Positions 8,298 to 37,012 of a stretch of 64,000 nucleotides of DNA are shown here, in pieces. Source of the DNA: Candidatus Saccharimonadales bacterium (GTDB lineage Bacteria; Patescibacteriota; UBA1384; 2-12-FULL-50-11); contig DATIHX010000009.1 in NCBI GenBank assembly GCA_035480235.1, positions 3,857-67,856 on the forward strand. Direction: 5' to 3'. Under the pieces are notes generated by a model that was not told the origin of the DNA, did not search any database, and was given only the letters and a program-made list of their open reading frames with translations. Made by a program: the position numbers and the translations under genes. Numbering within the stretch: the stretch's first letter is position 1; every line of letters starts with the position of its first letter.

Positions 8298-9682
8298 CAG
8301 TTCGGTTTCCTTTCGTGCCAATCGGTTTCTTTTTGATACTCTTTGGCGATGGTTAGTAGGAGGTTATCTTTTTTCCAACTGGCCGTCAGCTGGCCGCCAA
8401 TGGGTAAGTTGTCTCCGGTAAAACCAGCTGGCAACGACAACGCCGGTACACCGGCCAGGTTAGCGGAAACAGTCAGTAGGTCTGATTGGTACATCGCTAC
8501 CGGATCTTTGGCCTTTTCACCAAACTTGAAAGCGGGCGTTGGGGTAGTTGGGTTAACTAAAACGTCCACTTTTTGGAAAACCTCGGCGTACTCTTTTTTG
8601 ATTTGAGCCGCCACTTTCACGGCTAACTGATAATAGTCGTCGTAATGGCCGACAGAAAGCGCGAACGTGCCCAGCAAGATCCGCCTTTTTACCTCGGCGC
8701 CAAAATTAGCCCGAGTGTCAAAATAAGTCTCAAGTAATTGGCCGCTCTGCCGCTCACTTTTTTTGTAACGGATGCCATCATAACGCGCCAAATTGGCCGA
8801 GGCTTCAGCCGGCAAAATAACGCAGTAAGCTGGTAGGGCGTGGGCGGTGGCGGGCAGCGTTACTTCAGTAACGGTTGCGCCTTTGGTTTTCAGCCAGGCT
8901 ACAAACTCGTCGTTCAGTTTTTTTACTTCCGGGTCGATATCTAACTCCCAAAGCTCCTTAGGCAGGCCGATTTTCAGCTTTTTGAAGTCAATTTCCGTTG
9001 GTTTGTAGCTGTAATCGATGGTCGTTTGATCATTGTCATCTTTGCCACAAATTGCGGCAAAAACTTTCTCCACATCGGCGGCGCTGCGGGCCAACGGGCC
9101 GATAACGTCAAGCGAGCTAGCTAAAGCCACTAAACCGTAGCGCGAGACGGCACCGTAGGTGGGTTTGAGGCCGGTAACGCCGCAGAAAGCGGCTGGTTGG
9201 CGGATCGAGCCGCCGGTATCGGAGCCAAGAGCGACATCACAGAGACCGGCCGCCACCGCCGCCGCCGAGCCACCGCTCGAACCGCCCGGCACCCTTGAGG
9301 TGTCCCAGGGGTTTTTCGTCGGGCCAAAAGCTGAATTCTCGGTGGAAGAGCCCATCGCAAATTCATCAAGGTTGGTTTTACCGACTAACGTCGCCCTAGC
9401 TTTTTTTAGGCGTTGAATGATAGTGGCGTCGTACGGCGAAATATAACCTTCCAAGATTTTCGAGCCAGCCGTCAGCGGCCAATCTTTGACAGCAATATTG
9501 TCTTTGACGGCAATTTTTACGCCAGTGAGATTGCCGTCACCCTGAGCGAGGCTCTGCGAGTCGAAGGGTGGTGTGAGTGGCGTTAGCTCTGGGTATAAAA
9601 AAGCGTTGTATCTATTTGAGGGAACGACCTTGTCGCTCTTGTCGTGACCGAAAAAGTTTGTCGAAGACAAGCTATCCTTCAT
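8297..9682 (-). CDS. gatA: Glu-tRNA(Gln) amidotransferase subunit A
   Basis: Amidase signature GGSSGGSAAAVAAG...GSDTGGSIRQPA. Confidence 0.95.
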   Translation of the reverse strand: MKDSLSSTNFFGHDKSDKVVPSNRYNAFLYPELTPLTPPFDSQSLAQGDGNLTGVKIAVKDNIAVKDWPLTAGSKILEGYISPYDATIIQRLKKARATLVGKTNLDEFAMGSSTENSAFGPTKNPWDTSRVPGGSSGGSAAAVAAGLCDVALGSDTGGSIRQPAAFCGVTGLKPTYGAVSRYGLVALASSLDVIGPLARSAADVEKVFAAICGKDDNDQTTIDYSYKPTEIDFKKLKIGLPKELWELDIDPEVKKLNDEFVAWLKTKGATVTEVTLPATAHALPAYCVILPAEASANLARYDGIRYKKSERQSGQLLETYFDTRANFGAEVKRRILLGTFALSVGHYDDYYQLAVKVAAQIKKEYAEVFQKVDVLVNPTTPTPAFKFGEKAKDPVAMYQSDLLTVSANLAGVPALSLPAGFTGDNLPIGGQLTASWKKDNLLLTIAKEYQKETDWHERKPN

Positions 9683-9980
9683 CTGCTACCTCGCCGAAAA
9701 CCGCCGGCACGACGTTTTGGCCGTCTCGCCAGTCGGGCGCTAAGTTCTTTAATTGCTCCACACTTAACCGCTCGCCGCTCACTTCATCCGGCCGCAAACT
9801 TTCTAATTCTGCCGGTTCGGCTCCAGCTAAACTGTCATCCAATTTGACCGCTCGCAGCTGCTCCACAAATTCCACAATTTTCGGCAATTCCTGGCTCAAA
9901 CTTTTTTGTTCTTCGGTGCTCAGACGGATTCTGGCCAACTTGGCCAAATGAGCAATTTCGGCGGCAGAGAGTTCAGACAT
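9672..9980 (-). CDS. gatC: Asp/Glu-tRNA amidotransferase subunit C
   Basis: Small acidic protein (MSELSAAEIAHLAKLARIRLSTEEQ...) immediately upstream of gatA and overlapping it. Start trimmed from 10019. Confidence 0.8.
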   Translation of the reverse strand: MSELSAAEIAHLAKLARIRLSTEEQKSLSQELPKIVEFVEQLRAVKLDDSLAGAEPAELESLRPDEVSGERLSVEQLKNLAPDWRDGQNVVPAVFGEVADEG

Positions 9981-10705: not shown

Positions 10706-13053
<2,348 letters not shown>

Positions 13054-24473: not shown

Positions 24474-25289
24474 TTATGATTTCTGAATGTTTTTTCCCAC
24501 TTCTTGCGAGAGCTGCTGCCACTGCCGAAATGATAAATCGGCCGGCCGAGCGAGTGGGTTAAGTTTGAGTTCGGTAAATATAGCTTGAATCTCGGTTCGG
24601 CTCACCGGCAGGTCTTTCAGGCCGTTCATTAGGGTTTGGCGAGCGTGGCGGAAGCCAGCTTCGACAACTGGCCAGAAAACCGATTCCAGTTTTGATTCTT
24701 TGAAGGGCGTCACCTCGATCACCGCCGACTCCACTTTGGGCATCGGCCGGAAACTGCCCGGCGCCACTTTACGAATAATTTTAATATCGGCATTGGCTTC
24801 GCTTAAAACGGTCATAAAACCGCGATCGCGGTCGCCGGGTTTAGCGGTCAGCCGCTCGGCCAGCTCCTTTTGAACCAACAAAATAACTGTTTTTGGTTTT
24901 TTGGCCAAGTGGTAAATTTTTTGTAACAGCGGCGAGGTGATTGAGTACGGGATATTGGCGACGATTTTATAGCCGGCTGAGATTTCCAGCGTCCAATCCA
25001 CCCGTAACGCGTCGCCGGTCACCACCGTTAATTTAGGAATATGTTTTTCACGTAAATAGTCAGCTAATTCGCGATCGGCTTCAACAGCAATCACGCGCTT
25101 AACTTTTTCCAGGAGTGCAAATGTGAGTACACCCAACCCTGGCCCGATCTCCACGACCGTCTCCTCGCTTTCCAGCTTGGCCGCCGCCACGATGTCTGTC
25201 AAGGCTTTTTCGTCCACCAAAAAGTTCTGCCCAAATTTTTTATCGGGAAATTTCTGCAGGTCTTTGAGGATTTCGACGGGCTTCATCAT
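24474..25289 (-). CDS. rsmA: 16S rRNA (adenine1518/1519-N6)-dimethyltransferase
   Basis: FGQNFLVD...VVEIGPGLGVLT...ANIPYSITSP. The start could be the second ATG at 25286. Confidence 0.9.
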   Translation of the reverse strand: MMKPVEILKDLQKFPDKKFGQNFLVDEKALTDIVAAAKLESEETVVEIGPGLGVLTFALLEKVKRVIAVEADRELADYLREKHIPKLTVVTGDALRVDWTLEISAGYKIVANIPYSITSPLLQKIYHLAKKPKTVILLVQKELAERLTAKPGDRDRGFMTVLSEANADIKIIRKVAPGSFRPMPKVESAVIEVTPFKESKLESVFWPVVEAGFRHARQTLMNGLKDLPVSRTEIQAIFTELKLNPLARPADLSFRQWQQLSQEVGKNIQKS

Positions 25290-25330
25290 TACATTTTACT
25301 CTAATATCAGCTTCAGAGCTGCCGTTCTTA

Positions 25331-25579
25331 GTTAGGGTGAGGGGGCTTAGTTGCGAGGCAGCCCCCTACACCCTAACAACCCCGGCGGCTCGCTCGCCGC
25401 TTGGCAAAAGTTAGGGAAAAATTATAACTTTTGCAGCGGCTTCCGTTCGAAAGCTCCAAGCATTCGCTTTCTCACCCCCGCACGCTTCCTTTGCAGGGCA
25501 GTGGTGCAAGCTGATGGCTGTCAACCGGCAACTGGCACTGTTTCCTCCATCAGCTTGAGGAACTATTGGTAGGGCGGCA
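25331..25579 (+). ncRNA. structured-RNA-like element, copy 1 (unknown family; strand tentative)
   Basis: Nested helices GTTAGGGTG/CACCCTAAC and GGGGGCT/AGCCCCC, plus helix AAGCTGATGG/CCATCAGCTT. Paralogous to 34762-34918 with compensatory changes. Confidence 0.45.
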
Positions 25580-25583
25580 GGGC

Positions 25584-26573
25584 TTACGCCCAGGGCCAGC
25601 GTGAGCTGTAGCCCTTATGTATTGCGCAGGCTGTTACTTTAATCTGGGTCGGGCCGTCGTTCCAGGCGGCGCCAGGGAAGCCGCACATCGCCGAGGCCTG
25701 AGCCCAAAAGCTCGTCGTATATTGGAATAAGCCGTAATAAGTGCCGCCACCGCCAACCGAACCAGCGTGGCCGTTACTTTCAATAATTAAGCCTTTACAG
25801 AGTAAATTAGGGTCGACGTTGTTGGCGATCGCCGCCGATAAAACGGTGTTGTCGTACCCAGCGCAGGGCACGGTAATGACCGGTTTGGTACCGATTAAGT
25901 CGACTTCACTAATCGGCGCGGTGGTAACGCTCTGGCTCTGTAAAACGTGCGAAACCGTCACGCCATCTTTGCGGGTATCGCGGTAAACGCTGGTCAACAC
26001 GCCGTTTTTGCCCGGCGTTTTAACTTTAGTCAGGCCCTTGTTAAGCGTCGGGTCGTCTTGTTTAACGACGTTAAAGGCAACGGGGCTGGTTTGGGTCACC
26101 GACGTCACTGCCACCCGAACAATGGTAATTGTTTGTTTTGGGTGAAGCGTGGAAGCCAGAGCCGGCGAAATTTCGTCTTGGTCGCCGAGCGTAATATTTT
26201 GCTCTTTTAATAAACCGTCAACCGTCGCCGCCCAAGTGAAAGCGGCGTAGGGTTTAGTGCCGTCAACAATCGTCAGCGGCAGCGCTTGGGTATCAAATAT
26301 CACTCCGCCTAGGCCATCTTGGATATTGGCCGGAAAAACCTGGATCTGGTCTTGCGGGTGATAAGCAATGCCGGCTTGGGCAAAAGCGGCCACAACGGTG
26401 GTCGCACGACTGTCAAAGTGGAAGCTAACCACGGGATGGTAAGGGTTAACGCTCGTATTAGTACCGGCAAAGATTGGAGCGATCTTCTGGCCACCGGTAA
26501 GCAAAAAAACCAGGCCGGTGGCAAGTAAAATGGCCCCTCCGATAATCTTGTAGGCCAGACGAACGCGAAACAT
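25584..26573 (-). CDS. cell-wall lytic protein: N-terminal TM, G5-like region and transglycosylase-like C-terminal domain
   Basis: The C-terminus IIESNGHAGSVGGGGTYYGLFQYTTSFWAQ...QIKVTACAI resembles the ES..G...YGLfQ...W transglycosylase-like signature. The middle part is G5/DUF348-like. Confidence 0.7.
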   Translation of the reverse strand: MFRVRLAYKIIGGAILLATGLVFLLTGGQKIAPIFAGTNTSVNPYHPVVSFHFDSRATTVVAAFAQAGIAYHPQDQIQVFPANIQDGLGGVIFDTQALPLTIVDGTKPYAAFTWAATVDGLLKEQNITLGDQDEISPALASTLHPKQTITIVRVAVTSVTQTSPVAFNVVKQDDPTLNKGLTKVKTPGKNGVLTSVYRDTRKDGVTVSHVLQSQSVTTAPISEVDLIGTKPVITVPCAGYDNTVLSAAIANNVDPNLLCKGLIIESNGHAGSVGGGGTYYGLFQYTTSFWAQASAMCGFPGAAWNDGPTQIKVTACAIHKGYSSRWPWA

Positions 26574-26913: not shown

Positions 26914-26938
26914 CCGCTCAATCGAGCGGGGATTTTTT
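26914..26938 (+). terminator. intrinsic terminator
   Basis: CCGCTC aatc GAGCGG gga TTTTTT. Confidence 0.65.
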
Positions 26939-29906
26939 AAATTCGGTCGAGCAGACTTTCGTCGAGTTCGGCCAGGAAGCGGCTGGGCAGCGTTGAGGTT
27001 AAGCCGCCGTGAATGATCCGCTGGCGGGCGTGCGTCAGGTACAAGCGTTTGCGGGCCCGGGTCATGCCCACATAACAAAGCCGGCGCTCTTCGTCCATCT
27101 CGCTTTGGTCTTCCAGCGCTCGCAGGTGCGGGAACAGGCCCTCTTCCATCCCGGTCAAAAAGACGGTCGTAAATTCCAGGCCTTTGGCGGCGTGCATGCT
27201 CATCATCGTCACCGCGTCAGCCGAGCCGTCGTAGTTATCGACGTCCGAAACTAAGGCGACGTGTTCTAAAAAATCTTCCAGATTTTCAAACTCGAAGGCC
27301 AAGTTTTTTAATTCTTCGACGTTCTCCCAACGAGCCTCGCCCTCGGGCGTGCCGTCGTTCACATAGTCCTGATATTTGATCGTTTTCAAAAGCGTCTCTA
27401 TAACCACTTGCGGCGTACTTTCGGCGACCATCGCTCTTAATGTCGCCATCTCGTTCAAAAAAGCCTGGACTTTTTCGCCGCCAGTGGCGAGCGTTTTTGG
27501 CCCGATCCCGCGGGTTGGCACGTTAATAATTCGGGCCAGCGAATGGGTATCGCTCTGGTTCAGCAAAAAGCGCAGATAGGCCAAGATGTCTTTGACTTCT
27601 TTCCGTTCATAGAAGCGCAGGGCACCGATCAGCCGGTACGGCACGCCTTCGTTTAAGAAGATTTCCTCGATCACCCGCGACTGGGCATTGGTCCGGTACA
27701 AGACCGCGAACTCGCCCCAATTTTTGCCCATGTTGTGGAGAACCCTGGCTTCTTCAGCGATAAAATCCGCTTCGCCGTAAGCGTTGTGAGCCTCGAAAAC
27801 GGTGATCGGCGGCCCTTCTTCGTTATCGGTCCAGAGTTTTTTGTCGGACTTCCTTTTGATCCGGTCAACAATTTGATTAGCGCCCTTAAGGATGGTTTTG
27901 GTCGAGCGGTAATTCTGCTCCAGTTTAATAACGGTCGTGCCGGGAAAATCCCGGGCGAAATTGAGGATATTTTTGAAATTGGCCCCGCGCCAGCCGTAAA
28001 TAGAGTTGTGCACTACAATGCCATTTGCAATAAGGGTGTTGCTTTCAACTACGTCAATATCATAAACGAGTCCCTCGTATTGCTCAAAAACCACTTCAGC
28101 AATTTCAGCGGTGACAACTTTCCCGTCCTCAACTATCGGCACAAGCATACCTGGGCGTAAATGAGCAGCCGGTTGCCAGGGGAAGTTTCTATCTTCCTTG
28201 GTTAGTCGGGCCGCTCGGTGTAAATCGACTTCGCCAGCTTTGCTCAGCTCTTCCGCTAAAGTGTAAGCGTCCGCAAAGTGCTTGCGCGATGTTTCCACAC
28301 GACGACTCTTTTTATCAGCCCGGGTTTCGATACCAGCGTTCGATAACCGCTCCAATAAGGCGGTGTTGCTTGTAGTCAAGCGGACACGGTGAGCATGCCA
28401 AGGCAACTTTGTTTCGACACGGCTATCGCCGAATTGGATTAAATAAGCTTGAGCCCGACCAGGGTAAAGGTTAGACAGTTCAGTTGTCACCGCCTGTGGT
28501 CGAAAATGTGGGTACTCGGAAAATAAAAGATAATCAGCCATTAAATTCTCCGCATTGGTGGTCGTATCGATTTCTTTATAAATCTGATCAATGTGTTTCT
28601 GGGTAAATGTCAGTCCGTCTCGACCCAGCGAAAAGAATAGTACTTTGGGGATCTGGTATTTGAGTGAGAGAAGCTCCTCCTGGTAACGGGCTTCAACTAA
28701 ACTACTCGTGACGACGATAATCCACATTTTATCGGCTCGTTCTTGATTCGCCCTAGCAAGTAAACCGTTTATTTCGCCTTTACCGGGGTTACGAATACCC
28801 CGCGTTATTCCCAATCGATAGCCCTTATCAGCCCGGAACATCAGGTAAACGTACCACTGACCTTCTTTCGGCTGGAGACGGGCGAAACAAATATGTTCCG
28901 GTGTCATCGTAACCGAGCGGCCGGATTTTGTTCTAATCTGTACGACACTGCCCTTATATTTCGTGGTTCTTACTTCGTTGACAGAGAATTGCTGCGTTTC
29001 TCCAAAACCACTGGCAGCCACAATCTTGGTGCCTTTTTTCACTTTTTCAATCGGCAATTCTTTTTCTAGAGTCAGGACTTTAGTATTAGGTAATAGGCAC
29101 TGGTAATCGTCGCCGACGACGCATAAATTCTTGGCGGTTGGGTTCATCAGCGCCAATGTCAGCCGGTACTGGGCGTGGTTGGTGTCTTGATACTCGTCGA
29201 CCATCACGTATTTGAAGAGTTTGTTGTACTTGGCTTTGATCGCTGGGTTGTTCTCGAGCATCCGAACTGTTTCACCGATTAAGTCGTCAAAATCCAGCGC
29301 CGAGAGTTTTTTTAGCTCTTTCTCGTAATTTTTGAACACGTCGACAGCGATCGTTTGAAAGTGGCCGTCGGCGTAGGTTTCGTACTGGGCCGCCGTTTGC
29401 AGCTCGTTTTTGGCGTTGGAGATAATGCTGCGAATCGCCTGGGGGCTGTATTGTTTCGGGTCGAGGTTTTTGTCCTTGAGGGCTTGTTTGATCACCAAGA
29501 GTGAGTCGTCGGAATCAAAAATGGTGAAGCTCCGGCTCAGGCCGATATTTTCGGCTTCAGCGCGGAGCAACCGGACGCAAATGCTGTGAAAGGTGCCGAC
29601 CCAAGGCAACCGGCGACGCATCACTAAATTCGGGTTTTTGGCCCAGGCGCTTTCGTCGTGACCGAGGATTTTTAATATCCGGTGGCCGAGTTCCTGGGCG
29701 GCTTTATTAGTGAACGTCACCATCAAGATTTCATCGAGCTCGGCTTTGTGTTCGGCCACGATATAGGCCATACGGTGGGTCAGGCACTTGGTTTTGCCGG
29801 AGCCGGCCCCGGCCAAGATTAAAACCGGCCCTTCGGTCGCCCGGACCGCTTCCTGCTGCGGCTCGTTCAAATCCGTAAAAATGTCGGTGGTTTTTGTCTC
29901 ACTCAT
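26937..29906 (-). CDS. pcrA: UvrD/PcrA-family DNA helicase interrupted by an intein
   Basis: Walker A GAGSGKTK, DEYQDT, motif III split as VGDDYQ | intein | SIYGWRGA, and later helicase motifs (VTMMSMHAAKGLEF, LCYVGMTRAR). Start trimmed to the ATG at 29906. Confidence 0.9.
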   Translation of the reverse strand: MSETKTTDIFTDLNEPQQEAVRATEGPVLILAGAGSGKTKCLTHRMAYIVAEHKAELDEILMVTFTNKAAQELGHRILKILGHDESAWAKNPNLVMRRRLPWVGTFHSICVRLLRAEAENIGLSRSFTIFDSDDSLLVIKQALKDKNLDPKQYSPQAIRSIISNAKNELQTAAQYETYADGHFQTIAVDVFKNYEKELKKLSALDFDDLIGETVRMLENNPAIKAKYNKLFKYVMVDEYQDTNHAQYRLTLALMNPTAKNLCVVGDDYQCLLPNTKVLTLEKELPIEKVKKGTKIVAASGFGETQQFSVNEVRTTKYKGSVVQIRTKSGRSVTMTPEHICFARLQPKEGQWYVYLMFRADKGYRLGITRGIRNPGKGEINGLLARANQERADKMWIIVVTSSLVEARYQEELLSLKYQIPKVLFFSLGRDGLTFTQKHIDQIYKEIDTTTNAENLMADYLLFSEYPHFRPQAVTTELSNLYPGRAQAYLIQFGDSRVETKLPWHAHRVRLTTSNTALLERLSNAGIETRADKKSRRVETSRKHFADAYTLAEELSKAGEVDLHRAARLTKEDRNFPWQPAAHLRPGMLVPIVEDGKVVTAEIAEVVFEQYEGLVYDIDVVESNTLIANGIVVHNSIYGWRGANFKNILNFARDFPGTTVIKLEQNYRSTKTILKGANQIVDRIKRKSDKKLWTDNEEGPPITVFEAHNAYGEADFIAEEARVLHNMGKNWGEFAVLYRTNAQSRVIEEIFLNEGVPYRLIGALRFYERKEVKDILAYLRFLLNQSDTHSLARIINVPTRGIGPKTLATGGEKVQAFLNEMATLRAMVAESTPQVVIETLLKTIKYQDYVNDGTPEGEARWENVEELKNLAFEFENLEDFLEHVALVSDVDNYDGSADAVTMMSMHAAKGLEFTTVFLTGMEEGLFPHLRALEDQSEMDEERRLCYVGMTRARKRLYLTHARQRIIHGGLTSTLPSRFLAELDESLLDRI
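28005..29099 (-). mobile_element. intein (365 codons) in helicase motif III
   Basis: Starts with Cys (CLLPNTKVLT), has block B TPEH, and ends ...NGIVVHN followed by extein Ser. Removing it restores VGDDYQSIYGWRGA. Confidence 0.85.
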
Positions 29907-29937
29907 GCGCTCATCAGCATAGCGGAAGTACGGAGTA

Positions 29938-29963
29938 GAAAAAAGCCGCGGATATACCGCGGC
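29938..29963 (-). terminator. intrinsic terminator separating the 724-aa gene from pcrA
   Basis: Minus strand: GCCGCGG tatat CCGCGGC TTTTTTC. Confidence 0.7.
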
Positions 29964-29970
29964 GGGTTCG

Positions 29971-32145
29971 TTAGTTGGCCTTAGCTGAGGCAACTCCCAA
30001 CTTGAAAACCAAGCTACTCATATTGCTATCTCCCAGGTCGAGATACCGTCGGGCTGCCCGAATTATGGCCGCATCTCCGGTTAGGAAGATGGCCCACTCG
30101 AGCCAGGCTTTGGCTTCCATATCGGCTTGATGGGCAAGGAGCCACCGCTTGAAATCTGCCACGCCTTTGTGGAACTCAAGCCAGTCAAACCAGAATTGCC
30201 GCTGGACATCGTAATTGTGGCGCAGAACGCCACGCAACTTAGCCAGCGCTTGGAGGAACATCCTTACCTGGTCCGCTTCGCTGTAGCCGTACTTTGCAAC
30301 GAACCGAGCCTTCGCTTCGTCCGAATGACCCTTACTCTCTTTATGGTAATCGATGAGACTCTCCTCGATCCAGTTTTCGGCAAACCATGCATCCACCTTT
30401 TTCCGCCATCGAGAATTGAGCCATTGTTTCGGCCTGTCAGCCGAGCTAACTAACTTAATAACGACGTCCTGAGCATGAGCGTATCTTTCTCGAGAATGGT
30501 TAATAGCCCAAGCGATTTCCAGTAATGCAGCTCGCACTTCGGCATCTCGATCGAATCGGGACATGAGATGCTCTTGGAGCCAGGCCAATTTGCCTTCATA
30601 GCCTCCTTCGGGCTGATAGAAGAGCGCTGAAACCACTACATCTTTGACGGCGACGCCGCAATCAAGGAGTGTATCCCGCCAGTGAGCGTCAGCCCAAAAG
30701 GCAGCCGATTCTGGCAGCGCTTCCCTTCCAGCGTAGTGGGATTGATAGGGCAAGATTGCCCGAACCACATTTTCGCTTTGGAGATCGGCCCTTACTAGCT
30801 GATAACCGGCCTTATAACAGGCTTCGGCATGATCTTCATTTGCGCTCAGGAGAGCACCTGGTTGAATGCCCCAAGGAATAACAAACTCCTTTACGAGCTT
30901 TTCCAGGCGATAAGCCAAATAACGCTCTTTCGGAGCTACGTAGCTGGCAATCCAACGACGCAAAACGGCCTTAGCCGCCTCCTCGTCGGGTTGGTCAGCC
31001 AGCCAGTCCGCCAGCTGACCAGCGTCAAGCTTATCGGCTACCGGATCAATCGAACCGGCGAGCTGGCGCCGACTCTCCTCCGGCAACTCGCTGTAGAAGC
31101 AATCCCAATCCCCGCTTTCAACGGCTAGCCGTCTCAGATACGGTGCAGCGATCCCGAAGGGCAGCTGCATAAGGACGTCGTAGAGCCGGGGAGCGCGATC
31201 TTCCGGAGCGCCTTTGTGGAGCGGATGCTCCTTATTGTTATGGGCAGCGAACCAACCCTCCAAGTTGGTCGTTAGCCCAGGGCTAATCGCTAGCTCCGGC
31301 AGCAACTCGTTTGCCAGCCGCCACGCGTAGTGGCTGTTGATACCAGCGAGCTCGGCGCGCTCAGCCGAGCTGAGCTCGCCGATGAACCGCTTCACAACCT
31401 TAACTGCATACCTTGAGACGTAGTCGTTTCGGTAGCTCGAGCCTTCTTTGATCACTGGCTCGCCCCGCAACGCCCCAACTAGTTCCGGCCAGAGACCACG
31501 GGGCAAGGCCCCGAGAAGAGTCGTGGGCGTCCTATCCTTTGAATGATCGACGGACTCGTCAAAGATCCAGCAGAATAAGTGTTGTCGCAAGTCTGGCAAA
31601 TGAGCCAGCTCCGGTAGCCCAACAGTTTCATTGACCAGACTTGCCAGGTTATCATCCCTCGGTTGGTAGACCCAGCGACAGGCCTGGTAGAATTCGACGT
31701 CGTTGTCGGCGGGTCGGTGGGTATACCGTCGCCCCAATCTACAGGCGGTGGCAATTTCCTCCCAGCTGACTTGCCCGTTTCCGGTAATCCGCGCCCAGAC
31801 CTGGTGCGCCGAGGTTGGGACCAGCGAAAGGTTGCGGACGAGGAACTTGTCGATGAAAGATTGCCGATTGGCGGCCGAATGGTTGGCTGCGTACAGCAAG
31901 CTTGTCAGCACCAGCGGATCGGTCTCCCGAGCCTGAAGATGCTCACGAGCTACGCGAAACAGTGGCGAGTCAGGATTCAGGGCGTTACTGGCCAAACTCT
32001 CGACTGCCAGCCGTGAGTTCCAGGTGCGCTCATCTTCGAGCAGGAACTTTAGGCCTAAGTTTCGAGTGCGATTATCGAGTTTGGCTCGGAAATCGAGACG
32101 ATGCATCAGGGTTTTACCCCATTCAGATAGATTAGCAGTGTTCAT
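29971..32145 (-). CDS. large orphan protein (724 aa), Trp-rich and helical-looking, no recognised motif
   Basis: AGGAGGAAGT RBS before the ATG at 32145. Uninterrupted 2.2-kb ORF with its own terminator. No signal peptide, TM helix or Walker motif seen. Confidence 0.8.
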   Translation of the reverse strand: MNTANLSEWGKTLMHRLDFRAKLDNRTRNLGLKFLLEDERTWNSRLAVESLASNALNPDSPLFRVAREHLQARETDPLVLTSLLYAANHSAANRQSFIDKFLVRNLSLVPTSAHQVWARITGNGQVSWEEIATACRLGRRYTHRPADNDVEFYQACRWVYQPRDDNLASLVNETVGLPELAHLPDLRQHLFCWIFDESVDHSKDRTPTTLLGALPRGLWPELVGALRGEPVIKEGSSYRNDYVSRYAVKVVKRFIGELSSAERAELAGINSHYAWRLANELLPELAISPGLTTNLEGWFAAHNNKEHPLHKGAPEDRAPRLYDVLMQLPFGIAAPYLRRLAVESGDWDCFYSELPEESRRQLAGSIDPVADKLDAGQLADWLADQPDEEAAKAVLRRWIASYVAPKERYLAYRLEKLVKEFVIPWGIQPGALLSANEDHAEACYKAGYQLVRADLQSENVVRAILPYQSHYAGREALPESAAFWADAHWRDTLLDCGVAVKDVVVSALFYQPEGGYEGKLAWLQEHLMSRFDRDAEVRAALLEIAWAINHSRERYAHAQDVVIKLVSSADRPKQWLNSRWRKKVDAWFAENWIEESLIDYHKESKGHSDEAKARFVAKYGYSEADQVRMFLQALAKLRGVLRHNYDVQRQFWFDWLEFHKGVADFKRWLLAHQADMEAKAWLEWAIFLTGDAAIIRAARRYLDLGDSNMSSLVFKLGVASAKAN

Positions 32146-32486: not shown

Positions 32487-32918
32487 ATGGAATGGCTGTC
32501 GCTGGCGGTGTTTACTTCGGTTGGTTACGGCTTGTACAACTTTTTCATTAAAGCGGCCTCAGACAAAATTAACCCACTACTAGCGACGTTTTACCTCACC
32601 TTGACCGCCGCGATTGTCAGCGGCATTGCTTTACTAGTTTTGCGGTCGCTCAACTTACTACCAGCCGTTCACTCTACCCGCAGCGGCGTGGCTTTGGTGA
32701 TCGCCGCCGGGGTTGCTACCGGCGTGGCCGATTTGTTGTATTTTATTATGTTTGCGCGCGGCCAAAGCTTGAACGTTGGCTTGCCATTCGCGCTCGGCCT
32801 AGCGACGGTTTTGGCAATTACGTTGTCAATGATTTTTCTACACGAGACGCTGACTATTACCAAAACGCTCGGAATTATTATTACTCTCGTCGGCATCGTC
32901 ATCTTGGCTAAGTATTAA
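32487..32918 (+). CDS. half-size EamA/DMT-like membrane protein (143 aa)
   Basis: Single EamA-like repeat with about 5 TM helices. TGgTAAGAT extended -10 lies 6 nt upstream of the ATG. Confidence 0.7.
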   Translation: MEWLSLAVFTSVGYGLYNFFIKAASDKINPLLATFYLTLTAAIVSGIALLVLRSLNLLPAVHSTRSGVALVIAAGVATGVADLLYFIMFARGQSLNVGLPFALGLATVLAITLSMIFLHETLTITKTLGIIITLVGIVILAKY

Positions 32919-33318: not shown

Positions 33319-33373
33319 AGCTACTTCGTCGCGACCTTTTGTTTCCGTTCGACGTCGAAGAAACGGGCTTGCT
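33319..33373. repeat. dnaB 3' terminus (direct repeat B)
   Basis: Partner of 32413-32467. Confidence 0.85.
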
Positions 33374-34685
33374 CGGCGCGGAAGTGCAGCTCCACTTCGC
33401 CGATCGGGCCGTTCCGGTGTTTCCGAATCAAAATATCGGTCATGCCTTTGCGCTCGGTGTCGCGCTCGTAGTAATCTTCGCGGTAAATAAACATCACCAC
33501 GTCGGCGTCTTGCTCGATGGAACCAGAGTCACGCAAATCCGAGAGTTGCGGCGTTTTTTTGTCGCGGCTTTCGACGGCCCGAGAGAGCTGCGCCAGGGCC
33601 AGCACGGGGACATCCAATTCACGGGCCAGCGCCTTCAAATTCCGGGAGATCTCCGAGACCTCTTGAACCCGGTTGTTGTCGCCGTAACCGCCGCTCATGC
33701 CGCCGCTAATGAGCTGTAAATAATCGACGACGATTAAACCGAGATTGTGATCGGCCTTCAGTCGTCTGGCTCGGGTGCGGATATCAAGTGTGGTCAGCAT
33801 CGGCGAATCGTCGATAAAAATCGGCGCCTCGGCCAACGTTCCCATCGCCATACCGATCGCCGGGAAATCGTCTTCGCTGAGGTTGCCGGTGCGCAGTTTC
33901 CAGCCGTCCACCATCGCTTGGGCGCAGATCAACCGGTCGACCAACTGCTCTTTGCTTTGCTCCAGCGAAAAGAAACCAACCGGTGTCTTGCCTTTGACGG
34001 CCGCGTTCAAAGCCATGTTTAAGGCCAGGGCGGTTTTTCCCATAGAGGGTCTGGCCGCCAGAATAATTAAGTCGGAGTTCTGAAAACCGGAGAGCTTGTG
34101 GTCGAGATCGCGGAAACCGGTAGTGACGCCGCGTAAAATCCCTTTTTCGCGGTGGAGCTGGTCGATCCGGTCGAAGCTCGAAGCCAGAATGTCGGAGATC
34201 GGCATGAAGTTGTCTTTCACCTGGGCGTGCGAGACTTCAAAGATCGCTTTTTCGGCTTGGTCCAGCACTTCGGCGACCTCGCGGTCTTCTTCGTAACCGA
34301 GTTGGCTGATTTTTTGGCCGGCCGTTAAGATTCGCCGCAAGACCGCTTTTTGGTGGACGATCTCGGCGTAGTGGGCGACGTGAATGGCGGTTGGTACCGA
34401 GTTGACCAGTTCGGCCAGGTAGGCGGCGCCGCCAACGCCGTCGAGCTGCTTGACCCCTTCCAGCTCGTTAGTCAGTGTTACTAAATCGATCGGCGCCCGT
34501 TTGTCGTAGAGGCGCAAGACCGCCCGGTAAATCGTTTGGTGATCGGTCCGGTAAAAATCGACATCGGTAATAATGTCGGCGATTTTGTCCATCGCGTCTT
34601 TGCTGGTTAAGACCGCGCCGAGCACCGCCGCTTCGGCCTCGATATTCTGCGGCGGGATTTTGCCGAGTAATTGTTCTTTGGCCAT
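33321..34685 (-). CDS. dnaB: replicative DNA helicase
   Basis: Walker A ARPSMGKTA, IVVDYLQL and the RecA-like core, with a DnaB N-terminal domain (PQNIEAEAAVLGAVL). Confidence 0.95.
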   Translation of the reverse strand: MAKEQLLGKIPPQNIEAEAAVLGAVLTSKDAMDKIADIITDVDFYRTDHQTIYRAVLRLYDKRAPIDLVTLTNELEGVKQLDGVGGAAYLAELVNSVPTAIHVAHYAEIVHQKAVLRRILTAGQKISQLGYEEDREVAEVLDQAEKAIFEVSHAQVKDNFMPISDILASSFDRIDQLHREKGILRGVTTGFRDLDHKLSGFQNSDLIILAARPSMGKTALALNMALNAAVKGKTPVGFFSLEQSKEQLVDRLICAQAMVDGWKLRTGNLSEDDFPAIGMAMGTLAEAPIFIDDSPMLTTLDIRTRARRLKADHNLGLIVVDYLQLISGGMSGGYGDNNRVQEVSEISRNLKALARELDVPVLALAQLSRAVESRDKKTPQLSDLRDSGSIEQDADVVMFIYREDYYERDTERKGMTDILIRKHRNGPIGEVELHFRAEQARFFDVERKQKVATK

Positions 34686-34761
34686 CGTCTTTTAAGTACT
34701 ACGGTTTTTTGAAGAATTTTCAATGACTACTATATGCGGCTAGCGCCGCAGCTCTCTTTTC

Positions 34762-34918
34762 CCAGAGGATAAGGGGCCTACTTGCGAAGCGGCCCCCTAC
34801 CCTCTGGACTCCCACCCCTGCACGCTTCCCTTCGGGGAGAGGAGGAAACGGATGGCTGGAAACCGGAAACTGTCACGGTATCCTCCATCGGTTTCAGGAA
34901 ACTATTTTATTGGCGGCA
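34762..34918 (+). ncRNA. structured-RNA-like element, copy 2 (unknown family; strand tentative)
   Basis: Helices CCAGAGG/CCTCTGG, GGGGCC/GGCCCC, TTCCC ttcg GGGAG and AAACGGATGG/CCATCGGTTT. Candidate promoter TTGAAG-16 nt-TATATG at 34709-34736. Confidence 0.45.
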
Positions 34919-34934
34919 ACAAGAAGAAAACCTC

Positions 34935-34963
34935 TTGACTTTTCAGGGTTAACATGTTAAAGT
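34935..34963 (+). promoter_or_regulatory. sigma70-like promoter with extended -10
   Basis: TTGACT, 17 nt (ending in TGT), TAAAGT. Confidence 0.55.
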
Positions 34964-34991
34964 TAGCCCAACAATCCCCAAGGAGAGTTGA

Positions 34992-35342
34992 ATGTACCGA
35001 ACCTTAAGTATTGCCGCGATAGTTTCGTTAATCACCATCTTTTTTTGTCTCCTGGTCGTTATCGGATGTGAGCCGGAGCAAAATCACCAATCGTCCACTC
35101 CGCCAGCATCGGCGATGGCTGTAGGCAAACTGGTGAAAATCGTACCAATCCAAACGTCCTGGAACGAGTCCCAGCGAAGCCAGGTCGTCACCGACAAAGC
35201 AACGTATATTGTCATTGGCTACCCCAGCGGCGGGCTTTCAACAGAGGTAAAACTCGAAAAAGGACCAGATGCACTAGAGCCTTACTATCTCTGGATTGAG
35301 CAGCCGGACGGCGAGTTCCGAAGATACACTTCCAGCGGCTAA
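34992..35342 (+). CDS. small lipoprotein (116 aa)
   Basis: AAGGAGAG RBS. Signal peptide with lipobox LVVIGC. Confidence 0.65.
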   Translation: MYRTLSIAAIVSLITIFFCLLVVIGCEPEQNHQSSTPPASAMAVGKLVKIVPIQTSWNESQRSQVVTDKATYIVIGYPSGGLSTEVKLEKGPDALEPYYLWIEQPDGEFRRYTSSG

Positions 35343-35352
35343 ATAGCCGTGG

Positions 35353-35379
35353 CCACATCTCAAAGTGATGTGGTTTTTT
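35353..35379 (+). terminator. intrinsic terminator (overlaps the dnaX stop)
   Basis: CCACATC tcaaagt GATGTGG TTTTTT. Confidence 0.65.
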
Positions 35380-36910
35380 ATTTCACTTCTTCCAGCTCAA
35401 AGACGTCGACGACGGCTTCCATGAGGTCGTCTTCGCTTTTGACGGGAATGCTGAGTTCGGTTTTAACCACCGAATCCAAAACCAGCGGTTTGCCGGCGAC
35501 GGTTTCGGCGACTTTTTCCAGTAACTTCCGGTTTTTGATCTCGCCAAGGCGGTCGGCGTAGAACTTGAATTTAACGGCGATAATCAGCTTATCGTCGGTT
35601 AGCTCGGCCAGTTCAGCGGCCCGAACGACGGCGTACAAGGCGTGATTGTGGTTTTTCACTTCGGCGATAAAGCGCGGCCAGAAATCCCCACTATCAGTTG
35701 GTGGGGCAGCAGCTTTGGGCGATTCGGTAACCGCGTCCACCGCTACCGGCGTCTCTTCGGCCGGTTTTTGAATATCCATCGGGGTTGGTTTACCCTGAGC
35801 CTGGTCGAAGGGAGCGTCTTCAGCTTTTTCCGCCACACCAGTTTTGGTAATTGGAATTTCGGTATTGGAATTTGTTTGTGATTTGGGATTTGGAGTTTGA
35901 AGTTTTCCGCTTTGCTGCAGCAGCCGGGCCACCAGTAAAGCGGTTGGATCGGCCGAGACCCGGGCCCGGGCCAGAGTGGCTAAAAGCATCTCCAACAAGT
36001 CGGCGGTTTGGCCGAGCGCTGCCGGGTCGCTGGCGCCCAGTAACTCTTCCCGTAATTCGTCGGCGACGGCTTTCACCAAAACCGCTAGGTCACTACCCGT
36101 CGCCAAGGCTTCGGTTAATAATCTTTTGACGGCCGTTTGGTCGCCGGTAATCAGCGCTATTTTCAGAGCCGCCACCGTTTCGCCGGGCGGCAAACCCAAG
36201 AGCACCCGCACCGCCCCGGCATTTAAATCGGCCGCGCCGCTCAAACTGCCAAGGAGCGTTAAGGCGTCGCGGAACGAGCCCTCGGCCCGGCGGGTAATTA
36301 AATTTAAGCCCTCGTCATCTAGAGTAATTTTTTCCTGCTTGGCGATGGCTTTTAAGACGCCGAGCAAAGCTTCCGGCGAGGCCCGGTGAAACTGGTAGCG
36401 CTGGCAGCGGGAAACGATCGTCACCGGCACTTTTTGCAACTCGGTGGTGGCTAGAATAAAAATGACGTGGGCTGGCGGCTCTTCCAGGGTTTTCAGTAAA
36501 GCATTGAAGGCTGAAGTAGAAAGCATATGGACTTCGTCGATGATGTAAACCTTGTATTTAGCACTGCTTGGCGCGAAGCCGACCTTTTCCCGCAACTCAC
36601 GGATATCGTCCACCCCGTTATTAGAGGCGGCATCAATCTCAATGACGTCCAACAGCTGGCCGTTATCAAACTGGAGGCAGATCTCGCACTGCCCACACGG
36701 CTCACCGGCCTTTGAGCGGTTTTGGCAATTAACCGCCCGGGCCAGCAGCCGAGCTAGGCTGGTTTTGCCGGTGCCGCGCGGGCCGGAGAACAAATAGGCG
36801 TGGCCCACCGAGTTGTTGGTGAGTGAATTGGTAATGGCCGTAATTAAATGGTCTTGGCCGACGACCTCGGAGAATTTAGTGGGACGGTAGGTTCGGTAAA
36901 GCGATGACAT
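35378..36910 (-). CDS. dnaX: DNA polymerase III subunit gamma/tau
   Basis: Walker A GPRGTGKTS, a Zn module (CQNRSKAGEPCGQCEIC), DEVHML and SRCQ. Start trimmed to the ATG at 36910. Confidence 0.9.
   Translation of the reverse strand: MSSLYRTYRPTKFSEVVGQDHLITAITNSLTNNSVGHAYLFSGPRGTGKTSLARLLARAVNCQNRSKAGEPCGQCEICLQFDNGQLLDVIEIDAASNNGVDDIRELREKVGFAPSSAKYKVYIIDEVHMLSTSAFNALLKTLEEPPAHVIFILATTELQKVPVTIVSRCQRYQFHRASPEALLGVLKAIAKQEKITLDDEGLNLITRRAEGSFRDALTLLGSLSGAADLNAGAVRVLLGLPPGETVAALKIALITGDQTAVKRLLTEALATGSDLAVLVKAVADELREELLGASDPAALGQTADLLEMLLATLARARVSADPTALLVARLLQQSGKLQTPNPKSQTNSNTEIPITKTGVAEKAEDAPFDQAQGKPTPMDIQKPAEETPVAVDAVTESPKAAAPPTDSGDFWPRFIAEVKNHNHALYAVVRAAELAELTDDKLIIAVKFKFYADRLGEIKNRKLLEKVAETVAGKPLVLDSVVKTELSIPVKSEDDLMEAVVDVFELEEVK
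35846..35910. repeat. in-frame heptamer-repeat module (dnaX linker copy)
   Basis: ggtaattggaatttcggtattggaatttgtttgtgatttgggatttggagtttgaagttttccgc. It encodes KLQTPNPKSQTNSNTEIPITK. Confidence 0.65.
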
Positions 36911-37012
36911 GACACAATTGACCGTGCCACAAAACTCCCCGTTTGTCATCAGTTGCTTGGCGCCCTGACGAGGCGTAGAATGAGCCCTGAGCCCAAACGG
37001 GCAGGAGGAAAA

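Follow-up and report, generated by a model that had tools for sequence, protein, structure and literature searches.

REP, BIME and REPIN sequences are extragenic imperfect palindromes with a conserved bulge which are moved by RAYT tyrosine transposases; they lie in either orientation among housekeeping genes and inside operons, differ in presence between strains, occur as inverted doublets in the case of the REPINs, and have a hairpin that is asymmetric between the strands, as is expected of a folded single strand. MITE-like (miniature inverted-repeat transposable element-like) repeats such as Correia/CREE of Neisseria, RUP and BOX of Streptococcus and ERIC/IRU are non-coding, 100-300 nucleotides (nt) long and structured when transcribed, and they carry terminator-like hairpins, are inserted beside promoters and have a mosaic make-up (compare the A, B and C modules of BOX). 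The ends of IS200/IS605 elements and the PATEs possess a subterminal imperfect hairpin pairing better on one strand, are inserted between genes and leave no target duplication. In addition, the small RNAs (sRNAs) of Gram-positive bacteria with C-rich seeds (RsaE/RoxS and the Rsa RNAs with a UCCC motif), about 100-170 nt long, have conserved unpaired C-rich motifs between hairpins, a 3' hairpin with a U-tract and independence from the neighbouring genes. All these features have their likeness in an element which is present twice in a 64,000-nt stretch of DNA from a Candidatus Saccharimonadales bacterium, the whole of which is called the window here: copy 1 at about 25308-25581, upstream of rsmA, and copy 2 at 34736-34918, upstream of dnaB, 9.4 kb apart. 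The element is a family of hairpin-rich non-coding modules which matches no Rfam family and was found here only in Patescibacteria. With somewhat less than even confidence, it is read in this paper as a portable structured intergenic module which has no promoter of its own and would be folded as a single strand, the mechanism being inferred.

By analogy the element appears to behave most like the REP/BIME/REPIN or MITE-like repeats, yet what defines those repeats is missing here. It is 150-270 nt long with four to six helices (numbered as in Table 1) and invariant linkers, as against the 20-40-nt palindrome of REP sequences, it lacks their GTAG-type 5' tetranucleotide, and in the fetched loci it is present in few, diverged copies (two in 64 kb) instead of tens to hundreds of near-identical ones; no RAYT or other transposase is found among the genes next to the elements, which were the genes scanned. 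Unlike MITE-like repeats it has few copies and neither a target-site duplication nor terminal inverted repeats longer than 5-6 nt, the sole terminal inverted matches being CTGCCG/CGGCAG in copy 1 and GCCGC/GCGGC in copy 2; furthermore, its stems are strongly compensatory and its loops invariant, which is unusual for decaying MITEs. While IS200/IS605 ends and PATEs have matching end hairpins, the element has one P2-type hairpin per unit with an unrelated P4, no TnpA or TnpB gene nearby and no conserved tetra- or pentanucleotide target that could be seen. From the C-rich-seed sRNAs it differs in having no sequence or Rfam similarity to them and no conserved promoter, in main helices which pair better on the opposite strand and in its sporadic occurrence among close strains. 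An integron attC site was also considered and rejected: at the base of P2 stands GTGAGGG...CCCTCAC, or GTTAGGG...CCCTAAC in the case of copy 1, so that R''(RYYYAAC) and R'(GTTRRRY) would be in the wrong order, and there is no array.

The members of the family were collected from loci of relatives, designated by L-numbers, that were fetched via DnaB homologues, one genome scan and one metagenome scan, and the copies per genome and the taxonomic range given here are lower bounds for these fetched loci. About 17 distinct members are recognized, namely copies 1 and 2, L002 (two partial copies), L003, L018, L043, L044, L079 (two copies), L085, L118, L129, L134, L136, L140, L146 and L148. A covariance model of the 5' half gives 15 full matches, with E-values of 1e-5 to 1e-26, and two partial ones, and within the window it finds copies 1 and 2 only; copy 1, which the sequence-only reading had already described, is recovered both by this model and by blastn, with 78% identity to copy 2 over 99 nt. 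Among the matches listed, seven of about 119 loci in the genome scan are true and the rest are chance matches in genomes of high guanine + cytosine (GC) content, and all true matches of the genome and metagenome scans lie in Patescibacteria-type metagenome-assembled genomes or contigs. Viral contigs, phage records and plasmid records gave chance matches or none. No family of Rfam 15 matches the element, the only gathering-level match in the window being a tRNA, and permissive Rfam scans of both copies and seven other member loci gave only chance hits to hairpin-shaped miRNA models (E > 0.3). No described RNA motif or repeat of Patescibacteria resembling the element was found in the literature. 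Since it matches nothing in Rfam 15, the family is regarded as new, though of an already known general kind.

In the model alignment 93.3% of the cells are paired, compared with 75.4% in shuffles, and 15 of the 20 model pairs are changed on both sides, that is, in a compensatory manner. None of 500 shuffles reaches the observed value on any measure, controls with slid partners drop to 39-53% paired, and conservation is higher in the loops and the linker than in the stems. The earlier claim of a genuine structured unit is thus borne out by a covariation far beyond chance. That ordinary intergenic terminator hairpins merely happen to look alike is a near-negligible possibility; the terminator look of P0 and P4 would suit it, but model E-values of 1e-10 to 1e-26 in unrelated contexts, the invariance of the 12-nt and 19-nt motifs and a covariation above that of all 500 shuffles stand against it. 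Coding potential was rejected as well, as a frame of 26-48 codons is open in L018, L140 and L085 and is broken by indels of 1-2 nt and by stops in other members.

On the plus strand of the window, the parts follow one another in the order P0, P2, C-rich linker, GCACGCU, P3, G(U/A)GAAAA and P4, with an optional extra module in some members; five helices are kept via compensatory changes and the loops are invariant. P0 has counterparts of altered sequence, with a U-run, at the same place in other members (GCGAC/GUCGC, GCAAC/GUUGC, GCAAG/CUUGC and GUGC/GCAC). P2 has 16-17 base pairs (bp) across the family and a single bulged A that is conserved, and its loop reads UAGUUGCGARGC; 11 of its 16 model pairs are changed on both sides and 94.6% of its cells are paired. 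In the linker, whose family form is ACUCCC(U)ACCCC, the blocks ACTCCC, CC and GCACGCT vary little or not at all. All four pairs of the 4-bp P3 are doubly changed (UCCC/GGGG, ACCC/GGGU, CACC/GGUG, CGCC/GGCG, UCAU/AUGG and UCUC/GAGA). P4 is flanked by an A-run and a U-run and takes the form of simple hairpins, an X type (L043, L136, L140 and L148) or a Y type; the last is confined to the two copies of the window, and that of copy 2 shows two compensatory changes relative to that of copy 1 (CAAGCTGATGG/CCATCAGCTTG). L079a and L118 are without P3 and P4. The optional module of copy 1 has in common with the long-form member L148 the blocks CTCGCTCGSCGCT and CTTCCGTTCG and a covarying AAAA...UUUU hairpin. 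Table 1 lists the coordinates, and every string quoted by the sequence-only reading was found at its position when checked against the sequence.

Table 1. Features in and around the two copies of the element (positions of the window)
Feature	Position	Strand	Remarks
Copy 2, promoter-like signal TTGAAG-16-TATATG	34709-34736	+	TTGAAG 34709-34714, 16-nt spacer, TATATG 34731-34736; judged a chance match, not part of the element
Palindrome TTGAAGAATTTTCAA	34709-34723		plus-strand TTGAAG is the mirror half of minus-strand TTGAAA
Putative dnaB promoter block	34686-34726	-	TTGAAA (34723-34718), 16-nt spacer, TAGTAC (34701-34696), ATG at 34685
Copy 2, P0 GCGGC-TAGC-GCCGC and T-rich run	34736-34759	+	hairpin 34736-34749; left border of copy 2, called terminator-like on plus
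Copy 2, P2 main hairpin	34762-34807		arms 34762-34778 and 34791-34807; 12-nt loop TACTTGCGAAGC at 34779-34790
Copy 2, conserved unpaired linker ACTCCCACCCCT and GCACGCT	34808-34826		C-rich on plus, G-tract-rich on minus
Copy 2, P3 TTCCC-TTCG-GGGAG	34826-34839	+	TTCCC 34826-34830, GGGAG 34835-34839; T34826 opposite G34839
Copy 2, P4 (Y-type 3' domain)	34845-34895		outer helix GAAACGGATGG (34845-34855) with CCATCGGTTTC (34885-34895)
Copy 2, 3' tail AGGAAACTATTTTATTGGCGGCA	34896-34918		right border; GGCGGCA common to copy 1, can pair with GCCGC of P0
Lipoprotein-gene promoter-like site TTGACT-17-TAAAGT	34935-34963	+	only site called by the consensus scan; outside the element
Copy 1, long form	25308-25581		between the stop of the G5-domain gene (25584) and the start of rsmA (25289)
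Copy 1, P0	25308-25321		
Copy 1, P2	25331-25377		
Copy 1, optional module	25378-25472		
Copy 1, GCACGCT	25480-25486		
Copy 1, P3	25488-25497		
Copy 1, P4 (Y type)	25507-25557		
Copy 1, GGCGGCA	25573-25579		
rsmA	24474-25289	-	flanks copy 1
G5/DUF348 gene	25584-26573	-	flanks copy 1
UvrD/PcrA-type helicase gene	26937-29993	-	
724-aa open reading frame	29971-32145	-	
EamA-like open reading frame	32487-32918	+	short
dnaB	33321-34685	-	its DnaB is 100% identical to a protein of a Candidatus Saccharimonadales metagenome-assembled genome; the relatives are from Patescibacteria
116-aa putative lipoprotein gene	34992-35342	+	
dnaX	35378-36949	-	further right of the 116-aa gene

Other structural readings were tried and put aside. 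A pseudoknot of the P2 loop (GAAGC) with GCUUC after GCAC is not upheld, as the base facing the loop A is U, A, C or G without compensation; an alternative P3 pairing, of the linker CCCC with GGGG, is disrupted in two members, L136 and L043, whose local hairpin shows compensating changes. Promoters inside the element read from the P2 loop, a proposal from sequence reading only, have no conserved spacing, and a kink-turn reading of P2 and of the X-type P4 lacks the defining features.

The portability of the module is seen best at dnaB. The spacer upstream of this gene holds the element in four of 12 loci, on the strand opposite to dnaB in the window and L002 and on the same strand in L003 and L146, where it lies between dnaX and dnaB and is flipped relative to the window. 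It is absent from this spacer in the other eight (L001, L005, L012, L013, L144, L145, L147 and L148); most of the element-less loci have a dnaX-dnaB gap of 2-50 nt or other DNA between the genes, while in L148 a member of the long form is found upstream of dnaX. The DnaB protein of L001 is the same as that of L002, and the dnaB DNA of the two is 99.5% identical, with the homology stopping exactly at the ATG and the element present in L002 only. The Logan contig of L002 (11.4 kb, from dnaB to tatD) both starts (1-63) and ends (11330-11373) within element copies with a 14-nt overlap which, by the reasoning of a k=31 assembly graph, points to two copies that lie 11.3 kb from each other and have a core of 46 nt in common. 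At L079 (1312-1517), two members face each other 56 nt apart, as in a REPIN, and both break off at GCAC(GCT), without P3 and P4, and L018 and L140 have a near-identical 5' half from the first base of P0 with different 3' halves and flanks. Elsewhere the neighbours are rnpA/yidD, mraZ, nusA, tgt, the genes for RNase HII, a NUDIX protein and a GH94 protein and others, in all relative orientations, and in L018 and L140 the element lies between two gene ends. With such varied neighbours and orientations and such presence and absence among strains, the element has no fixed link to dnaB or rsmA, and its gain, loss or inversion takes place within short times.

The sequence-only reading had called a cis or antisense role conceivable from the same relative orientation of both copies upstream of essential minus-strand genes, and had suggested a comparison of the location of homologues. 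This comparison speaks against such a role, since the occurrence is sporadic, the orientation arbitrary (flipped in L003 and L146) and the other housekeeping neighbours unrelated. Because of the flipped orientation in relatives the element is not a dnaB leader, and a cis-regulatory leader or riboswitch of dnaB or rsmA finds no support, given the inconstant position and orientation of the element and its absence from those eight dnaB loci. Neither is it the 5' leader of the putative lipoprotein gene on the other side of the 306-nt spacer of copy 2, as had been stated earlier: this gene has a called promoter of its own 3' of the element, the single call of a consensus promoter scan over 34500-35100. 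The 116-aa protein has no homologue but itself among 5.8 billion proteins and so is an ORFan, which rules the gene out as a recurrent partner of the element (the 116-aa open reading frame of L003 is unrelated) and fits a recently remodelled spacer. It was further seen that this gene runs in the direction opposite to that of dnaX and dnaB, which in several relatives are adjacent to each other.

In L146 a GC-rich stretch of about 190 nt (1190-1379) with long inverted repeats (AGGAAATTG...CAAATTCCT; GCGGCC/GGCCGC runs) is situated between the element and dnaB; this stretch does not belong to the family and is possibly another structured insert. In L012 a gene for a 184-aa protein, matching Sigma70_r4 and RNA_pol_A_CTD, occupies the dnaX-dnaB spacer (9320-9874, minus strand) and there is no element; the spacer thus appears to be a hotspot for inserts of different kinds.

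No promoter of its own is recognized for the element. The sequence-only reading had assigned TTGAAG-16 nt-TATATG to a plus-strand transcript of copy 2, and this signal is no better than a chance match. It agrees with the consensus at eight of 12 positions, has no T at the end of the -10 box (-7 T), where a T is nearly invariant, and is not called by the consensus scan, and 310 sites at least as good are present in the 64-kb window, or about 4.8 per kb. In addition, the terminator-like hairpin with its T-run starts on the final base of the supposed -10 box, and upstream of P0/P2 in 14 members no -10 box (TANNNT) is found at a fixed distance. The other half of the same suggestion, a minus-strand TTGAAA for dnaB, holds up well: a block of TTGAAA or TTGTTT, 16 nt, TAGTAG or TAGTAC and about 10 nt precedes the ATG of dnaB in L012, L001, L146 and L147, whether the element is present or not, so the plus-strand "-35" belongs to dnaB. 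TTGAAA/TAGTAC is therefore taken as the probable dnaB promoter, which would leave dnaB a leader of only a few nucleotides. As a separate observation, no Shine-Dalgarno sequence is seen before dnaB (34683-34726, minus strand) or rsmA (25287-25310, minus strand), and a -10-like box lies at most about 10 nt from each start codon (TAGTAC...ATG for dnaB and TAAAAT-GTA-ATG for rsmA, the latter box also in relatives as TAGAAT and TATAAT), which suggests that the mRNAs of both genes are leaderless or near-leaderless.

Which strand is folded was argued earlier from G-U wobbles, said to point to plus-strand transcription. This stands for the closing pair of P3, the sole helix whose wobbles favour plus, and is reversed in P2, where all transition-type mismatches are G-U on minus. 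In about 16 sequences, some of them closely related, P2 shows 227 Watson-Crick cells, none with G-U on plus and 13 unpaired on plus, 11 of these being A-C or C-A (G-U on minus); one-sided (G-U) changes occur on plus at none of the 16 pairs, and a hand alignment of 16 hairpins gives 14 minus-favouring cells versus no plus-favouring ones. Copy 2 itself contributes two such pairs. The asymmetry corresponds to roughly 8-12 independent changes (copy 2, L043, L044, L129, L136, L079a/L118 and L079b), and its probability under an even split is below about 0.01 by our own rough estimate. The wobbles of P4 are mixed (nine minus versus five plus), and its X type, in four members, has on minus only an uninterrupted helix of 10 bp that includes G-U pairs and leads into a 2x2 GA/GA internal loop (RNAalifold, -9.8 kcal/mol versus -5.5 kcal/mol on plus). 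Fold z-scores against dinucleotide shuffles are lower for minus in nine of the 12 full-length members, with a mean of -4.0 versus -3.1 for plus; copy 2 folds with -86.6 kcal/mol (z -4.05) on minus and -74.2 kcal/mol (z -2.43) on plus. P0, on the other side, is terminator-like on plus only, which counts for the plus strand. In most members the terminal A-run, hairpin and U-run are usable both ways, and in the copies of the window the U-tract is degenerate and no terminator is called there. As far as can be judged from these pairings, the evidence on the strand is split and minus is the more likely one. The transcribed strand should consequently not be read from one small hairpin when the largest helix opposes it. 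It may be added that on the minus strand (34808-34840 and family-wide) four or five G-tracts lie in the linker and an arm of P2 (L018, for instance, has GGGG-UA-GGG-AGUGUGA-GGG-UGUA-GGGG); they match the G-quadruplex consensus and would compete with P2.

Under the portable-module reading, then, the unit would be gained, lost, flipped and duplicated as a whole among intergenic sites, possibly moved by a trans-acting enzyme or by recombination after DNA uptake. It would act as a folded single strand, either as read-through RNA made from neighbouring genes or as single-stranded DNA, with the P2 loop, the bulge and the linker as the candidate recognized parts, and the strand selected for folding would more likely be window minus, judging from the wobbles of the large helices. 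It may be tolerated because of its terminator-like border hairpins and because, at near-leaderless genes such as dnaB and rsmA, it would land upstream of the short promoter and leave this intact. A number of observations weigh against this reading. The copies are few (two in 64 kb of the window, and none or one extra per 8-20-kb locus elsewhere), and those of one genome are diverged with the structure kept by compensatory change, a picture that suits selection for some host function better than it suits a recent selfish burst. Neither a mobilising enzyme, among the genes adjoining the elements, nor a target-site duplication or longer terminal repeat at the element borders was found. Moreover, P3 is closed on plus by a U-G pair in 6-7 members (six of 15 sequences by one count; seven cells versus one A-C by another) and by U-A, A-U or C-G in others, the asymmetry of P2 could alternatively reflect a sequence constraint on its C-tract arm, in which CCC is invariant and the partner G's drift to A, and the U-rich tract 3' of P4 is longer on plus; taken with the linker, which is conserved, C-rich and single-stranded, this tract would suit an sRNA of the plus strand that ends in an intrinsic terminator.

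A plus-strand gene for a trans-acting sRNA is accordingly a rival to be taken seriously, although it is considered rather unlikely. P0 would then be a 5' stem-loop, P2 a structural hairpin, the single-stranded ACUCCC(U)ACCCC an anti-Shine-Dalgarno-like seed acting on G-rich ribosome-binding sites, P3 and P4 with the U-tract an intrinsic terminator, and copies 1 and 2 paralogues. The conserved unpaired linker and loops between covarying stems, the wobble of P3, the 3' hairpin with a U-tract and U-rich sequence onward on plus in most members, the orientation independent of neighbours and the structure maintained in diverged paralogues would all be explained. What it has to face is that no promoter is conserved, the flanks being unrelated right up to the first base of P0; that the hexamers of copy 2 are at chance level and partly the dnaB promoter; that P0 and its U-run would end a plus transcript before the conserved core; and that the wobbles of P2 and of the X-type P4 speak for the opposite strand, as do the fold z-scores, while the P4 U-tract is degenerate in the window's two copies and P3 and P4 are missing from L079a and L118. 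A horizontally portable and self-contained sRNA cassette with an anti-Shine-Dalgarno-like C-rich seed and its own bracketing terminators, moving among intergenic sites and among genomes of Patescibacteria, is judged unlikely; if true, it would be the first small-RNA family described in Patescibacteria. A cis-acting RNA of the minus strand, serving as a processing, stabilising or attenuating structure in operon transcripts (G5 gene to rsmA, and dnaX to dnaB), is a still poorer prospect. It would agree with the folding signals for minus, with the minus orientation directly upstream of rsmA, dnaB, yidD, mraZ, nusA, tgt and dnaX in seven loci, and with the lack of a minus-direction U-tract after P4 in the window copies, which makes read-through possible; but host transcription would read the element as plus in L003, L146 and L136, L018 and L140 place it between gene ends, the dnaB and rsmA promoters are retained in element-less relatives, close relatives manage without the element, and the downstream genes share no function. 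Lastly, a site acting as DNA, in which the core (P2, linker and P3) would be bound by a protein or recombined and be shielded by the inward-facing terminators P0 on the left and P4 on the right, is thought very improbable. Terminator-like hairpins facing the core at both borders, the identical 46-nt core in two copies of one strain and the rearranged dnaX-dnaB spacer of many relatives speak for it, yet five helices with compensatory changes and strand-specific wobbles point to a folded single strand and not to duplex recognition, and no recombinase gene is adjacent at any locus examined.

The Patescibacteria (Candidate Phyla Radiation), a large lineage of ultra-small bacteria about which little is understood, have tiny genomes in which the regions between genes are very short. 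The cultured Saccharibacteria strain TM7x has been described as having short intergenic regions without validated small RNAs (2022 preprint, 10.1101/2022.03.25.485537). For these reasons a non-coding module of 150-270 nt could be a concrete handle on RNA-based regulation or on a mobility mechanism in this group.

As for the rest of the neighbourhood, GC skew in the window is too weak for a firm assignment of the replication strand. Between dnaB and uvrD lie the 724-aa open reading frame, which has no Pfam match, and the short EamA-like one; since relatives have only a small open reading frame at this place, the two would seem to be a further insertion specific to the lineage. The UvrD/PcrA-type helicase itself is 1018 aa long, as compared with about 620-650 aa in relatives, and carries an intein, with Intein_splicing and Hint matches at residues of about 296-663.

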